From the NCBI GenBank assembly GCA_036229005.1, contig JAZAMN010000024.1, positions 128,001 through 192,000 on the forward strand: a DNA stretch of 64,000 nucleotides, in the 5' to 3' direction. This document shows positions 52,161 through 59,704 of this stretch, in pieces. Numbering within the stretch: the stretch's first letter is position 1; the number at the start of each line of letters is the position of its first letter. The notes under the pieces were generated by a model. The model was given only the letters and a program-made list of their open reading frames with translations. It ran no database searches and was not told where the DNA came from. The DNA is from Myxococcota bacterium (lineage in GTDB: Bacteria; Myxococcota_A; UBA796; CAJQPC01). The position numbers and the translations under genes were made by a program.

Positions 52161-53816
52161 TCAGCGCGGCCACTGCTCCAGAAAGCGCACGATCCGGTCG
52201 CCCAGCGGGTCCAGGCGCTCGAAGAGCTCGTGGTCTTCGACATCGGACTGCAGGCGCAGGAAGAAGGCCTCCTCCAGCACCAGGGTGCGGCCCACCCGCT
52301 GGGCGATGCCCAAGGCCTCCAGCACCTCGGCGAGCTGCTCTCCGGTGGTCCCGCCGCGGGGACGACGGGTCACCAGCCAGCCCTGCATGGAGCAGAACTC
52401 GTCCAGCAGGAAGAGCAGATCTTCGTAGCGACGGCGCTTGATGCGCAGGTCGATGCGGGTGTTCTGGATGGTGAGCTGGACCTCGGCCCCGCTGCGGCGG
52501 TGCACCTGGAGCAGCGACACGATCATGGCCAGGTGGGGCACGTGGGCCAGGGCCCGCTGGCGCAGGGTCACCCGGTCGGGGATGGCGCGGCTGCGGGGCT
52601 CGCCGGGGTGGAAGATGCCGCCGTGCACCAGCTCTCGGCGGTCCACCGCGCTGGGCAGACCACCCTCCTTGGCCCGCCGCTCTTCCAGCAGGCGGTTCAC
52701 GCCGGTCACCCCGCCGACCAGGTCCTGCAGCGTGGGGGGCAGGGCGATGACCAGGTCGGTCTCCTCGGTCAGCTCCAGGAAGGGGCCGGTGAGCTCGCCG
52801 GGCTCGGGGCCGGGGTCGTCGGCCAGGGGGAAGGCGTCGATGGGGCGGCCCAGGAGCACGCGGTCCAGGTCGGCGGCCAGGCGGGCCGGGGTGACCTCGG
52901 CGCCGAACACGCGTCGATCCCAGCTTCCGTAGCGCTGCTGGAGCTTGGCGTATTGCATCGCCGCGCCCGGGTGCCCATCGGCCGCTTCCTTCAAGACCTC
53001 CAGGTAGTTGCGGTACCCAGGGTCGGAGAGGGCCACGCCCGCGACCGTGTCCGCCAGGTCCCGCCGCCAGACCGCGCCCCAGGAGACCACCAATCGGTCG
53101 CCCACGCGCCAGCCGTCTCCGCGACGCACCGCCATCTCGACATAGGAGCCCACCGGACACTCCTCGCCGCCGTGCCAGTCCAGCAGGGCCCGGACGTGCC
53201 ACAGCGAGAGCTCCCCGTGGTCCAACAGGGCGCGCAGGAGCACCCGGTAGGCCTCGGGGCTGTGCTCCGGGTTGCCGTGGATCTCCAGCTTGGGGGGGCG
53301 ACGCCGCGGCCGACCCAGGCCCAGGTCGAAGCTGAGCTGGTGGCCCTGGTTGGGCTTGCGGGCGGCGGGGTAGCGCATCGCGGGCTCCAGGAGGGCGCGC
53401 ACCGAGGTCGCTCGGCGGCGGGCGGTGCTGGGGGCCATGTCCGGCACGGCCTGTTGGATGTACTGGGCGATCACCCCGCTCTGGGGGAGCTCCGTGCGCC
53501 CCTCCATGAGCTGCACCACGAAGGGGTTCTGCCAGACCGCGCGCGCGTAGACCCGGGGGCGGTCGCGACCGGCGTAGGCGTACTCGGTACCCAGGCGCGT
53601 GAGGGTGGGGTGCAGCGTCTTCTCGTCCGTCGAGAGCAGCCGCAGCCAATCACCGGCCTGGGTGTAGTAGTTGACCGTCCGGACCTCGCAGTCCAGCAGC
53701 ATCGCGAGGCTACGGTTGTCCCGTACGCCGCGGGCGACCAGCTCGACCAGGCGGGCCAGCAGGCGCACGTTGTTCGCGTTGGGGATCAGGTTCTGGCGCG
53801 GGACCCGGGAGCTCAT
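52161..53816 (-). CDS. Hypothetical protein with an N-terminal winged-helix-like domain of the kind seen in restriction-associated proteins
   Basis: IPNANN..L..L...RTVNYYTQAGDWLRLL...LTRLG...STARRRATSV pattern. Confidence 0.65.
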   Translation of the reverse strand: MSSRVPRQNLIPNANNVRLLARLVELVARGVRDNRSLAMLLDCEVRTVNYYTQAGDWLRLLSTDEKTLHPTLTRLGTEYAYAGRDRPRVYARAVWQNPFVVQLMEGRTELPQSGVIAQYIQQAVPDMAPSTARRRATSVRALLEPAMRYPAARKPNQGHQLSFDLGLGRPRRRPPKLEIHGNPEHSPEAYRVLLRALLDHGELSLWHVRALLDWHGGEECPVGSYVEMAVRRGDGWRVGDRLVVSWGAVWRRDLADTVAGVALSDPGYRNYLEVLKEAADGHPGAAMQYAKLQQRYGSWDRRVFGAEVTPARLAADLDRVLLGRPIDAFPLADDPGPEPGELTGPFLELTEETDLVIALPPTLQDLVGGVTGVNRLLEERRAKEGGLPSAVDRRELVHGGIFHPGEPRSRAIPDRVTLRQRALAHVPHLAMIVSLLQVHRRSGAEVQLTIQNTRIDLRIKRRRYEDLLFLLDEFCSMQGWLVTRRPRGGTTGEQLAEVLEALGIAQRVGRTLVLEEAFFLRLQSDVEDHELFERLDPLGDRIVRFLEQWPR

Positions 53817-53867
53817 GGCGCGATCCTATCCCCGTTCGAACCTTCATGTTAGGTGGAAACAAATCCC

Positions 53868-53896
53868 TTGACATGACAAGAGCTTCGACCTAGTGT
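53868..53896 (+). promoter_or_regulatory. Sigma70-type promoter
   Basis: TTGACA-17 bp-TAGTGT in an AT-richer divergent intergenic region. Confidence 0.6.
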
Positions 53897-53940
53897 TTCG
53901 CTGCCGTGGGCGTCTGCAGCGTCCGCTGGCGGAGGAAGTT

Positions 53941-54960
53941 GTGAGCCGATTGGCCAGCCGCTTGGCGCGCAGAATGGAGCTCGAGAAGACAGGTGGCCAG
54001 CGCCAGGCCGCCTCCTTCGACCCCGACCAGCACTTCCTGGAGGCCGCTCTGCGTGGCCGGACCGCCCGCAAGGTGCGCGCCCACCTGCGCCGCCTGGAGC
54101 CCGTCGTCCTGATGACACCGCGGTGGTCCAACCCCCAGACTTTCCTGGAGGAGATCGCCCTGGACCTGGCCGTCGGAGAGCCCGCCGTGGGCTGCCGCAC
54201 CGTGTCCTTCCGGCCTCTCAAGGGTCGCCGCCCGCCCGAGGCCTGGAGCTTCATCCTCCAGGTTCTGGGCCAGCTCCGCAACCGCCGAAACGTCTCCCAC
54301 CCCCCCATCGTCGCCGATGGCCGCGGCTTCCGCTCCGTCGCCTTGGAGCTGCTGCTCCGGGCCCAGGACGAGACCGACCACAACCTGGCTCTGCTGGCCC
54401 ACGGCGCCGAGTACCTGCCCATCGACGTGATCGAGGACCTGGGCGAGGTCTGGGCCACCTACGTCCAGAGGATCCCGCGGGACCGCCGGGCCACAATGTT
54501 GCTCGCTGGCAGCGTCAACGCCGAGCTCGACCAGGGCAACCCCGTGACGCTGGCCGATTACGGGGAGGCTGAAGCGGCTGCTGCGATCTTCGGACGGACG
54601 GGGCCCACCGCTCGGGCTCACCTGGAGACCGCCGCCCGCTTCTCGGGCGGCATCCCCGCAGTGGTTGATGCGCTCGGTCGAGGTGCTCGGGAGCAAGGCG
54701 CGATGCCGCGCAGCCGGGCTGGTCTGGTGCGCGCTCTGGGCCCCCTGGGCGAAGAGATGCGCATGGCCGTGGACATCGTGAAGGCCGACACCGAGCTGGC
54801 TGAGCGCCTGCAGGCGCTGCTGCGCGGTGAGCCCCTGGTCGAGGTCCCGCAGGTCGACAAGCCCCTGATGATGGCGGGCTTGCTGCGTCGCGTGCGCTTG
54901 CCTGGCGAGGACCGCGTCATGCTGCGGGCCCCCGCAATCGGCGAGGTCGCTGGGAGCTGA
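53941..54960 (+). CDS. Hypothetical protein, possibly a degenerate STAND/AAA-like fold
   Basis: GGAGGA RBS with GTG start; FSGGIP resembles the GGxP motif; no intact Walker A. Confidence 0.6.
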   Translation: MSRLASRLARRMELEKTGGQRQAASFDPDQHFLEAALRGRTARKVRAHLRRLEPVVLMTPRWSNPQTFLEEIALDLAVGEPAVGCRTVSFRPLKGRRPPEAWSFILQVLGQLRNRRNVSHPPIVADGRGFRSVALELLLRAQDETDHNLALLAHGAEYLPIDVIEDLGEVWATYVQRIPRDRRATMLLAGSVNAELDQGNPVTLADYGEAEAAAAIFGRTGPTARAHLETAARFSGGIPAVVDALGRGAREQGAMPRSRAGLVRALGPLGEEMRMAVDIVKADTELAERLQALLRGEPLVEVPQVDKPLMMAGLLRRVRLPGEDRVMLRAPAIGEVAGS

Positions 54961-54997
54961 GGGTTCTCCGGGCGAGCCCGGAGCCCCCCGACCGGTC

Positions 54998-55495
54998 TCA
55001 GCCCGAGACCGAGGCGCCGCGCTCACCCTGGACGGTGGCGCTGCCCTTGTTGCCGTCGACGTCGACGACAAAGAGCTCGAAGGTCCACTCGTCCGCCGAG
55101 GTGCAGGGCAGGCTGTAGAGGTTGGCCTGGAAGCTGCCCGTGCAGGTGGCCGCGTCGGGGTCGCAGACCACGATGTCAAAGGCCGTGTCGACGGTCTGGC
55201 CGTCCTGTCCCCAGCTCACGCCGTGCTTGTAGGCCTCGTCCTCCTGGAAGGTGTTCCGGGGGACATCGTTGGGGCCCTGCGGGTCGTCGTAGCTCAGGGA
55301 GAAGCTCCAGAGATCGTAGGGGTTGTCGCCGCCCTCGTCGTGGGTGCGACAGATGGCCTCGAGCTCGCTCAGCTTGGGGCTCACGCCGTCGTCGACGACC
55401 TCCTCTGCGGTGTCGGAGTCGATGGGCTCGTCGTCTCCCTTGCAGGCGGTCAGGAGGACAAGGCCGGTGAAGAGGGCCAGGGGGGTGCTGCGCAT
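54998..55495 (-). CDS. Hypothetical lipoprotein
   Basis: LLTAC lipobox; AAGGAG RBS; YDDPQG..D motif. Confidence 0.75.
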   Translation of the reverse strand: MRSTPLALFTGLVLLTACKGDDEPIDSDTAEEVVDDGVSPKLSELEAICRTHDEGGDNPYDLWSFSLSYDDPQGPNDVPRNTFQEDEAYKHGVSWGQDGQTVDTAFDIVVCDPDAATCTGSFQANLYSLPCTSADEWTFELFVVDVDGNKGSATVQGERGASVSG

Positions 55496-55751
55496 GCGAA
55501 CTCCTTCAGCTCTCTGAAGGGTACCCCACTGGGGCTCGGCTGGCGAAGGCTCTCTGGGCTGGCCTCCGAGCCCAGTGTGTATAGTTGGCGATACATGGTG
55601 AAGGAGTGTGTACAGTGGCGCTGAGAAGCGTGTAATCCTGTAGGTTTGGCGTTCACTGTATTCGGTGATCTACAGGTGTTGATGGTCTTGGTGTAAGCAG
55701 GGGTCGTCAAGCGGTTTGCCGCAAGTGCCTGAAATCACGTTTCCAAAAAGT

Positions 55752-55767
55752 TGGCACAGGTCCTGCA
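55752..55767 (+). promoter_or_regulatory. Sigma54 -24/-12 promoter of the candidate ncRNA
   Basis: TGGCACA-GGTC-CTGCA; predicted TSS about 55778. Confidence 0.7.
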
Positions 55768-55779
55768 ATCTCTTTCTCC

Positions 55780-57345
55780 GACACCCGGCACAGTCCGGAG
55801 GTCAACCGAGAAAAACGCTCGGCACGTTCTTTGACGTTGACATCGCTGATTGTAGACGGCCGCTGGCCACCTCCTGTCGGAGGGACCTGAACTGGAAACA
55901 GAGCAGGGACAAAGTCAGCGCCTTGGGACAGACTCCTCGGAGTGGAAGACCCAAGGGGCCAACCCCGCAAGGCCAGGGCGACCTGGACGAGCGACGGAAG
56001 GCCGGAATCCAAAGCCTCCCTCGGGAGTGCGGAGGACCCAGCCGGAGCTCTTCGGAGCGAAAGGCGCGCTGCAGTCAGACAAACAAGCCCATGGAAGAAT
56101 CGAGCGGACCTTGGTCGGAAACGGCAAAGGGACGCAACGGACTCTCCCAGCGGAGCAAAGCCTTGGAGCCGCGAGAGCAGACCCCCTCGGGGGAACGCTC
56201 AGGACACAAGCCGGAGACGGCGGGTGTCCAAGTCGCCCAGACAGGACGGGAAACCAGCCTGACACGGCGGCGGGAACGGCAAGAGGGAAGCGCGGGTGCG
56301 GTGACGCATCGGCGGCTGCTGGAGAGGGAAAGTCTTTGAAGGGTCAGCGCTGCGGAAGCGCCAGGGACCGAGGCACCGAAAGGTGGGTCGGCAAGGGAGC
56401 CTCCTTTTGGGGGTGAACGGAACTGGAGCGGGAACGCAGCGAACCTCATGACCGGTAGCAGGATGCAACAAGCCTGCAGACCAGATGCTGATGCCGCCAA
56501 GGAGCTGAGAAAGCTCAAGGCAGCGCGAGCCCGACCTGGCAAGGAAGGGACAAAGCATGGACGAGCGACGCGGAGCCAGCGATGGCGAAGCGGAGCGGCA
56601 GTCGGAGACGGCTGTTGGGGTCGGAATGGCGTCGAGGCCACCCGGCACACACCCAAGACCATGTGGGAGCAGGCATCGCTGGAGAGAAGCCGACTGGAGA
56701 CAGTCTGAGGACAGCCAGCTTGGGTCCAGGAGAGACGGAGTCTGGAGAGCGCGCAGGCAGCGGAGTCGGCAACGACTCAGGCGCAGCGTGAACAAAGGCA
56801 CCGAACAGCCAGGACCGACGGTGACATCGGTGGAGAGGCGGAGAAACCCTCGGAGGAGGAGCAGGCGAGAGCGGACGACAGGACGCACTCACAGGCAAGC
56901 GAAAGAAAGGTCCTCGGACCCGGAGAGCGCCGGCTGCCGGCTCAGGAAACTTGGAAGAGTCTCCAAAGGAGGCGCCCAAGGACAGAAGGACGCAGCATCT
57001 TCGGATGCACAGCGGACTGCGAGAGAGACCTTGAAGGTCCCACCGAATCAACGCGAATCAAACCGCGTCGGTGAAGGCCAGGAAGGGACGCGGGAAAGGC
57101 CAACGACCCGCATCGCAGCCCAGGAAGGACAGCAGCAATGCTGGACGGCGACCTTGAGGTTCAGGCGAACCCCACAGCAGGCGTGACGCGGCGACGCGTT
57201 GAGCGCCAAGGTTCCCGTATCCTCCAAGAGGAACCCTCCCTGGGCTGGGTGTCACCTCTCCTTCAACTGCAAGGAGAGGAAGGCAGCAGACCTTGCTGCC
57301 AACCAAGACCCCGAACCGCTTTGCGCGGTTCGGGGTCTTGTCGTT
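55780..57345 (+). ncRNA. Candidate large (~1.5 kb) structured non-coding RNA of unknown class
   Basis: No ORF with host codon bias; at least 16 GNRA/UUCG/CUCG-capped hairpins on the + strand; terminal helix 55780-55789 with 57244-57253; promoter upstream and terminator downstream. Confidence 0.75.
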
Positions 57346-57347
57346 TC
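57304..57347 (+). terminator. Rho-independent terminator
   Basis: 16-bp perfect stem CAAGACCCCGAACCGC / GCGGTTCGGGGTCTTG followed by TCGTTTC. Confidence 0.85.
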
Positions 57348-57399
57348 GGGGCCCACCGCTCCGCCACCGCAGTGCAAACCCACCCCGACCCCCAGAGCA

Positions 57400-57477: not shown

Positions 57478-59649
<2,172 letters not shown>

Positions 59650-59704
59650 CGAGTCTCCTCGGGAGAGTTTGGGGACCAAGGGGTATCACGCCCGGCGCGG
59701 GGAT

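Follow-up and report, generated by a model that had tools for sequence, protein, structure and literature searches.

The window analysed here, a 64,000-nt stretch of a contig from a Myxococcota bacterium, carries on its forward strand at 55780-57253 what we annotate as a giant non-coding RNA (1474 nt between the outer ends of its closing helix), on the basis of a paralog of 73% identity, the indel pattern between copies and contigs from RNA libraries. Upstream, 52161-55495 holds three ORFs without a Pfam match (551, 355 and 165 aa), and relatives of the 355-aa and 165-aa proteins are encoded beside the RNA in several lineages. Downstream, a fused alpha/beta 2-oxoacid dehydrogenase E1 gene (57478-59679, minus strand), next to a gene for an FAD-dependent oxidoreductase, converges on the RNA; a fused E1 gene also adjoins the RNA in L032, L101, L108 and L116. 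The neighbours vary across the family and are ordinary genes, with lipoprotein-like, 355-aa and 2-oxoacid dehydrogenase E1 genes recurring in several lineages.

The region 55780-57253 contains only chance-type ORFs and displays a strong A-over-T skew. A second full-length copy, the one 73% identical, is present in the same genome (G000:C8:97256-98929, L021), where it is flanked by an FMN-dependent dehydrogenase gene and uvrB. Between the two paralogs, 1 of 20 indels is a multiple of three and substitutions fall evenly across the frames; in closer pairs the corresponding indel counts are 0 of 7 and 0 of 3. Because the indels break frames and the substitutions are even across frames, the RNA is non-coding.

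A sigma54-type -24/-12 promoter, read from the sequence TGGCAC-N6-TGCA, is found at 55752-55767, and the motif keeps a fixed distance of 28 nt 5' of the helix described below in 13 of 20 BLAST-derived stretches. By the usual sigma54 spacing, +1 lies near 55778. The original prediction that a helix begins just 3' of the sigma54-derived start holds: 55780 corresponds to about +3. The same arrangement characterizes the sigma54 group as a whole, in which the helix begins about 28 nt past the first base of TGGCAC and its partner strand lies just 5' of the terminator. The host genome has 23 strong PF00158 matches, and we consider it very probable that sigma54 directs transcription from about 55778. 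An element resembling AAGTNNNTGAAAT at 55722-55735, 5' of the promoter on the forward strand, fits the IHF consensus and recurs, by eye, at equal distance in many homolog upstream regions. Many homologs also have a palindrome, TGGGAAA-N-TTCCCA, some 40-60 nt upstream of the sigma54 motif and again at a greater distance; it is degenerate in the window copy and is likely to be an activator site. A sigma54 activator gene lies upstream of L074, with homologous ORFs upstream of L094, L147 and L150, and the best match to the L074-type activator in the present genome is at G000:C36:79212-80597 (56% identity). Three further near-perfect sigma54 motifs occur in this genome, at G000:C29:22041(-), C43:125073(+) and C57:74764(-).

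At the other end, an intrinsic terminator-like hairpin with an interrupted U-tract occupies 57304-57345 on the forward strand: a 16-bp stem (57304-57340, -32.3 kcal/mol) is followed by TCGTTT, and the interruption explains why the built-in terminator scan did not flag it. Homologs have an equivalent hairpin 3' of the helix. Between helix and terminator in the window copy (57255-57300) lie, exactly as had been described, two hairpins: 57255-57279, with a perfect 9-bp stem (-13.1 kcal/mol), and 57282-57300, with 7 bp (-11.2 kcal/mol). Across 48 homologs the spacer measures 48-66 nt in 5 (the window, L021, L047, L058 and L064), 21-33 nt in 4 and at most 7 nt in 39. The hairpins are kept within their genus-level lineage despite differing sequences, and spacer comparison thus defines them as a lineage-specific feature and no general trait of the RNA. 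In L022, a 20-nt sequence is tandemly repeated in several copies 3' of the terminator.

The two ends of the region are complementary. GACACCCGGC (55780-55789) and GCTGGGTGTC (57244-57253) form 9 Watson-Crick pairs and 1 G-U pair (55787-57246), as originally proposed. These 10 bp do not represent the full extent of the helix: about 8 further pairs (55791-93/57240-42 and 55797-801/57235-39) bring the stem to about 18 bp, so that its 5' strand spans 55780-55801 (outer part 55780-55789, inner parts 55791-93 and 55797-801) and its 3' strand, placed by pairing and homolog comparison, 57235-57253. The inner extension rests on the homologs, since the inner 5' bases pair locally in the single-sequence MFE. 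The region 55770-57350 contains four long-range helices of at least 10 bp with at most one G-U pair, and a 10-bp long-range helix is therefore not rare by itself in such a G-rich region. Its position is less easily obtained: of 2000 shuffles, 7 produced such a helix joining the 20 nt that follow the predicted start to the final 100 nt ahead of the terminator, and 10 of 150 produced one between those 20 nt and anywhere downstream. The MFE structure of the whole RNA contains the closing helix, with pair probabilities of about 0.9 for 55780-55785, and the folding z-score of the whole RNA is -8.8 (against 12 dinucleotide shuffles).

By BLAST, 20 of 41 related genomes had a match, in several cases a short or doubtful one. 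A pattern combining the promoter and 5' motifs detected 39 loci among GTDB genomes plus 78 in metagenomes and gave no match in viral contigs; searches of phages, plasmids and viral contigs likewise returned nothing. After removal of matches judged by eye to be coding chance matches (7 of the 39 from genomes, 13 of the 78 from metagenomes), 4 genome matches that were too short and 10 duplicate loci, and after merging of 13 near-identical ones, 65 sequences were kept. From helix start to helix end they measure 1033-2407 nt (median 1405, n=48), L069, L063 and L060 being short examples at 1.0-1.15 kb, and one contig implies a length of some 2.87 kb. With a covariance model built on the central domain, matches came from 89 of the 151 class genomes (as many as 6 in one genome) and from 28 of 151 genomes at the level of the phylum, including 13 of 123 outside the class; groups f2 (0/9), g3 (0/4) and g4 (0/3) had no match to this model. 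A short pattern search of 401 phylum genomes gave 22 matches, the 7 outside the order being at about control level; it had suggested a family limited to one order, a notion overturned by the covariance model.

Many genomes contain a single copy. Tandem copies 1.6-3.6 kb apart were seen in L147, where a second promoter and 5' end lie 3' of the first terminator, in G283 (C1:2186442 and 2188347), in G031:C29 and in G428:C416. At L012, L034, L050, L066, L071, L075, L110 and L124 the assembly is interrupted no more than about 250 nt from where the RNA starts. Such breaks are expected at near-identical multi-copy genes, so copy numbers and absences are probably underestimated. Searches with Rfam 15, which includes GOLLD, ROOL and OLE, returned 0 matches at gathering thresholds in the window and 14 homolog loci, and at E<=10 only 12 chance-level matches (best E 0.33). 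We found no description of this RNA in the open-licence literature searched. By these model and literature searches, the RNA family is uncatalogued.

Covariation between the end segments, proposed originally as a check, is present in 48 homologs whose 5' and 3' ends were aligned separately and blind to pairing. The pair 55781-57252 is G-C in 24, A-U in 17, G-U in 2, U-A in 1 and unpaired in 4 (n=48); 55783-57250 is A-U in 36 and G-C in 7; and 55786-57247 is C-G in 18, G-C in 11 and U-A in 5 (n=45). On a tree, these columns changed 6-9 times each. This set is drawn from the 65 sequences by leaving out 15 that were doubtful or cut by contig ends and 2 without a 3' anchor (L032 and L051), with the list of 3' anchors widened by eye to variant motifs. 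Among 60 sequences, duplexes formed with a sequence's own ends average -25.7 kcal/mol compared with -17.2 for mismatched ends, and the own partner ranks in the top five for 35 of the 60, many of the low ranks belonging to contigs cut at the 3' strand. The end duplex (median 17 bp) is better than dinucleotide shuffles in 46 of the 48 complete homologs, a comparison whose p-values are overstated by the relatedness of the homologs. The stem is poor in L069 and L072 and is interrupted by loops in most homologs. Together, end covariation and own-end duplexes support the view that the pairing marks one folded unit.

An independent set of 20 distant loci was chosen by the central-domain model alone. 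By eye, 14 of them have an end-to-end helix of 20-33 bp starting beside a promoter-like site: 9 were recognized via a promoter anchor and 5 more via a terminator anchor, the two anchors not always agreeing. The best promoter-anchored partner lies elsewhere in L164, L168, L170 and L181, the right site is the second of 2 in L180, and a motif-anchored search of the distant loci was noisy, recovering 4 of 20. Of the 14 promoters, 2 contain sigma54 motifs and the rest are sigma70-like. As the helix is shared by these loci and the promoter type mostly is not, we regard the helix as a trait of the family and the sigma54 promoter as a trait of the lineage. On this comparative evidence the RNA almost certainly has an end-to-end helix. 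L165 and L166 have a helix of 27-33 bp with a U-run directly 3' of it. In these two, both ends can form hairpins, the hairpin of the closing strand is followed by the U-run and no separate terminator was seen; from this arrangement it appears that the terminator hairpin itself would be the sealing strand.

The 5' strand has a second, local partner. A hairpin at 55780-55803 on the forward strand (55780-82/55801-03 and 55785-88/55795-98) competes with the closing helix, the two being mutually exclusive. The seven prefixes examined, 30 to 1460 nt long, all contain it in their MFE structure; at 1474 nt it is replaced. Position 55781 covaries with both partners, 55802 in the hairpin and 57252 in the closing helix. 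The 5' hairpin beats shuffles (p<0.05) in 22 of 48 homologs and the 3' strand alone does so in 3 of 48, which argues that the 5' hairpin is no mere by-product of complementary ends. In all 48 the end duplex is more stable than both hairpins together. The hairpin is non-significant in the remaining 26 and weak in the group of L049, L053, L065, L073 and L154, and is not universal in the family. We lean towards a hairpin-to-duplex switch that acts as a co-transcriptional folding aid and as end protection: the new 5' end would first be parked in a short placeholder hairpin, guarding against mispairing or degradation during synthesis, until the 3' strand, made about 1.45 kb later, displaces the placeholder and seals both ends. 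The aapA3 and hok mRNAs offer a parallel for such a switch, their metastable hairpins yielding to a 5'-3' interaction (PMC6733600).

The body of the RNA was analysed in a core alignment of 45 of the 65 sequences, which left out 10 close relatives or doubtful sequences and the remainder as longer than 1800 nt; in column 608 the window, L021 and L047 are out of register. Covariation in this alignment shows nested helices in a large multiloop, with large variable insertions around a fixed core. All parts lie on the forward strand. Inside the closing helix, a second helix (CCGAG/CTCGG, with a variable loop) is found at 55806-55822, followed at 55828-55837 by a near-invariant box, TCTTTGACGT, with a self-complementary core. 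The box is at least 95% conserved in the 45 sequences, most of which were selected by a pattern that contains it; the 14 BLAST-derived ones also carry it. It was undetected in most of the 20 distant relatives, and covariation and conservation analysis revealed no partner for it inside the RNA. The idea that it is a DNA site was rejected, with 20 copies in the genome, most of them coding-like. The assembly contains no 16S rRNA, another partner considered for the box.

Three domains make up the rest. The first (56085-56344) contains modules M1 (loop 56091-93/56338-40) and M2 (loop 56165-67/56281-83), whose flanking pairs are kept in 44-45 of 45 sequences. The second (56444-56838) contains M3, T-loop-like hairpin 1 (56458-56477) and M4 with T-loop-like hairpin 2 (56502-56516); 12 of its 14 pairs have two-sided change, and 98% of cells are paired compared with 29-42% in slid controls. 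The third, the 3' domain (56840-57234), contains M5-M8. Likenesses to glycine and c-di-GMP riboswitch motifs were dropped in view of the covariation-based structure and the Rfam result. Up to nine helices carry a common 3x3 loop in which A-N-G faces G-R-A, and as a rule AA stands immediately 5' of the helix. Pairs flanking the modules are kept in 34-45 of 45 sequences for M1-M8 and in 25-34 of 45 for M0; the window copy has no canonical M0, and its M4 and M5 are variant.

The outer positions of the 3x3 loop swap A-A for G-G, and the same exchange is seen at M2, M4 and M8. At M2, 56167/56281 is A-A in 32 sequences and G-G in 13, with no other state (n=45), making it the fourth strongest of 276,423 column pairs. 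Its state tracks a base pair below T-loop-like hairpin 2 in 44 of 45 sequences, L072 being the exception, and each column of M2 and of the partner pair changed 4 times on the tree. We consider this a candidate tertiary contact between M2 and the base pair below T-loop 2, the covariation signal amounting to about 4 events in a custom APC G-test rather than R-scape. The loops R-UGCAA-CA-RR and G-UGAGA-AA-C of the two hairpins fit T-loops by sequence (the U-N-N-R-A pentaloop pattern); no covariation was seen between the two loops. The 3x3 loops may be sites at which the RNA docks for packing, whether tertiary or between molecules, as in ROOL, GOLLD and OLE, a possibility that we place just short of even.

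Sequence from the region is present in RNA libraries: 14 runs recorded as RNA contain part of the stretch, and in four metatranscriptome runs from three studies contigs, unstranded and without a DNA control, cover 55804-57228 with few differences. The same RNA runs also carry sequence of the paralog (again as unstranded contigs). Contig pieces end at 57228 (X1), 57174 (X2 and X4) and 57151 (X20), with none in X8. From the flanking genes, spacer hairpins and terminator a single 35-nt loose-ended piece was recovered, in contigs from 8 runs without a DNA run, which are uninformative on ends, level or trimming. Among the metagenome contigs, 16 of 65 end 25-46 nt past the last module, the helix end lying at a median of 35 nt. 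Contig ends near the helix end are a weak hint, since the libraries are of unstated type and an assembly can also break at a hairpin.

We consider it probable that the locus encodes a transcript under activator control, with its 5' end first kept in a hairpin and then sealed by the 3' strand, and that this transcript packs into an RNA-only scaffold. The sealed body is predicted to pack, via its repeated purine loops, into a compact scaffold or particle made of RNA only, and a structural scaffold under activator control is our leading guess for its role in the cell. Among the closest parallels are GOLLD and ROOL, which, as reported in PMC12286853 and PMC5737381, are likewise large non-coding RNAs of bacteria with multiple junctions and a conserved core surrounded by variable linkers. 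According to the same sources ROOL averages 581 nt and many GOLLD RNAs exceed 800 nt, whereas the present RNA is longer (median 1405 nt). GOLLD and ROOL are also described there as often residing in prophages near tRNAs and as carrying pseudoknots and kissing loops. In contrast, the present RNA is chromosomal and surrounded by ordinary genes, neither the phage sets nor Rfam gave a match to it, and its building block is a 3x3 loop that recurs; no tRNA was called near either genomic copy, and the top 75 pairs include no pseudoknot or kissing-loop covariation of the ROOL or GOLLD kind. A 2017 survey (PMC5737381) lists rRNA, GOLLD and group II introns as the only RNAs that surpass ROOL in length and complexity. 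OLE (577-578 nt), as presented in PMC12990946, is also a large chromosomal structured RNA in whose fold non-canonical A-A pairs matter, but it belongs to another phylum, has no Rfam or sequence match to the present RNA and is described with dedicated protein partners, whereas none was identified for the present RNA.

MISL RNA is large, with a conserved core and many variable insertions, and the present RNA shares this organization. MISL is in Rfam, according to PMC10925082; the present RNA has no Rfam 15 match at gathering or E<=10 and is thus set apart from MISL by model search rather than by consensus comparison.

The repetition within the body could instead serve proteins. CsrB and CrcZ are sponge RNAs that bind multiple copies of a protein, and the body might act as such a multivalent sponge or scaffold, with one protein copy per 3x3 purine loop and a closing stem that only stabilizes. 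The up to nine near-identical modules, several copies per genome and A-rich, U-poor composition agree with this, as does an activator-controlled sigma54 promoter, a feature of known sponge RNAs. Pxr, CrcZ and Qrr are stand-alone sigma54 transcripts with an upstream activator site and their own terminator, the same layout as here, but the present RNA is several times longer, has a deeply conserved tertiary-type core and has distant relatives with sigma70-like promoters. We regard the sponge as unlikely: this 94% complete genome has no csrA match, the GGA-like letters lie inside covarying helices and not in hairpin loops, the link between M2 and a distant base pair suggests that RNA docks on RNA, and no single neighbouring gene family is common to all loci.

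Improbable, too, is a role for the end-to-end stem in processing, in which it would be cleaved as RNase III cleaves the stems of rRNA precursors and a mature RNA would be left inside. The long end-to-end duplex, reaching 27-33 bp in distant relatives, would suit such a function, but it begins at about +3 and leaves no leader, it is interrupted by loops in most homologs, and several metagenome contigs cover the 3' strand in full.

Paired ends are familiar from RNase P RNA and tmRNA, in which the 5' and 3' ends pair in the closing helix P1, and the T-loop-like stretches of the present RNA resemble RNase P as well. The genome, however, has separate RNase P and tmRNA genes, and the present RNA matches no model, is 3-4 times longer and has its own terminator immediately after the stem. 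The loop R-UGCAA-CA-RR matches GUGCAACAGA in the host RNase P RNA, in which GUCGAAAC is similar to hairpin 2. The two hairpins could accordingly interlock as a tRNA-elbow platform, in an RNA whose function would be to bind, store or cut substrates resembling tRNA. Elbow binding by interdigitated T-loops is convergent and is described in PMC4810234 for three RNA classes, namely RNase P, the L1 stalk and T-boxes. Yet the probability of this reading is low: the genome has a normal RNase P (227 bits), the two loops do not covary with each other, and no catalytic-domain pseudoknot was seen. Homology to RNase P was rejected, with no RF00010 match at E<=10 and no RNase P match for the core HMM. The host RNase P RNA (G000:C31:31989-32440, minus strand) is 452 nt, longer than the 367-position model.

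End pairing could also occur between molecules, as head-to-tail copies or as an end swap between paralogs. The window copy and its C8 paralog are near-identical in the first 60 nt and the 3' strand and 73% identical overall, both are in the same RNA runs, and the two hairpins of L165 and L166 could trade partners. Covariation is blind to cis versus trans, but proximity favours cis and many genomes have a single copy, leaving the intermolecular arrangement very improbable.

The weakest alternative, an mRNA silenced by a 5'-3' interaction in the style of type I toxins or a remnant of a mobile element or retron, recalls the aapA3 and hok mRNAs, in which, as reported in PMC6733600, metastable 5' hairpins yield to a long-distance 5'-3' helix, but is largely refuted by the frame-breaking indels and the lack of a codon pattern, by the absence of a masked reading frame or ribosome site in a pairing that spans about 1.45 kb, by the absence of reverse transcriptase or integrase among 56 neighbours scanned, by a retron and group II intron test that found no linked reverse transcriptase and no domain V match, and by the lack of matches in viral contigs, phages and plasmids.

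For the sealed RNA-only scaffold that we favour, the closing helix is ordinary as such; its value in this case is that it sets the probable limits of an uncatalogued RNA family whose members are roughly double the size of ROOL and exceed typical GOLLD RNAs in length. Ends given in this way are what in vitro transcription for cryo-EM requires. The repeated 3x3 loop with its A-A/G-G exchange may be an undescribed packing or recognition motif, with natural variants at hand, and a hairpin-to-duplex switch over 1.45 kb would offer a clean test case for the co-transcriptional folding of very long RNAs. If the reading is true to its full extent, which we rate as somewhat unlikely, the family would represent a new class of bacterial RNA machines of 1-3 kb: one packing module repeated up to nine times would build a protein-free particle on the scale of a ribosomal subunit, with a double T-loop platform for tRNA-like ligands, locked in its active state only once the last bases displace the 5' placeholder hairpin, and in some lineages the terminator hairpin would serve as the sealing strand.
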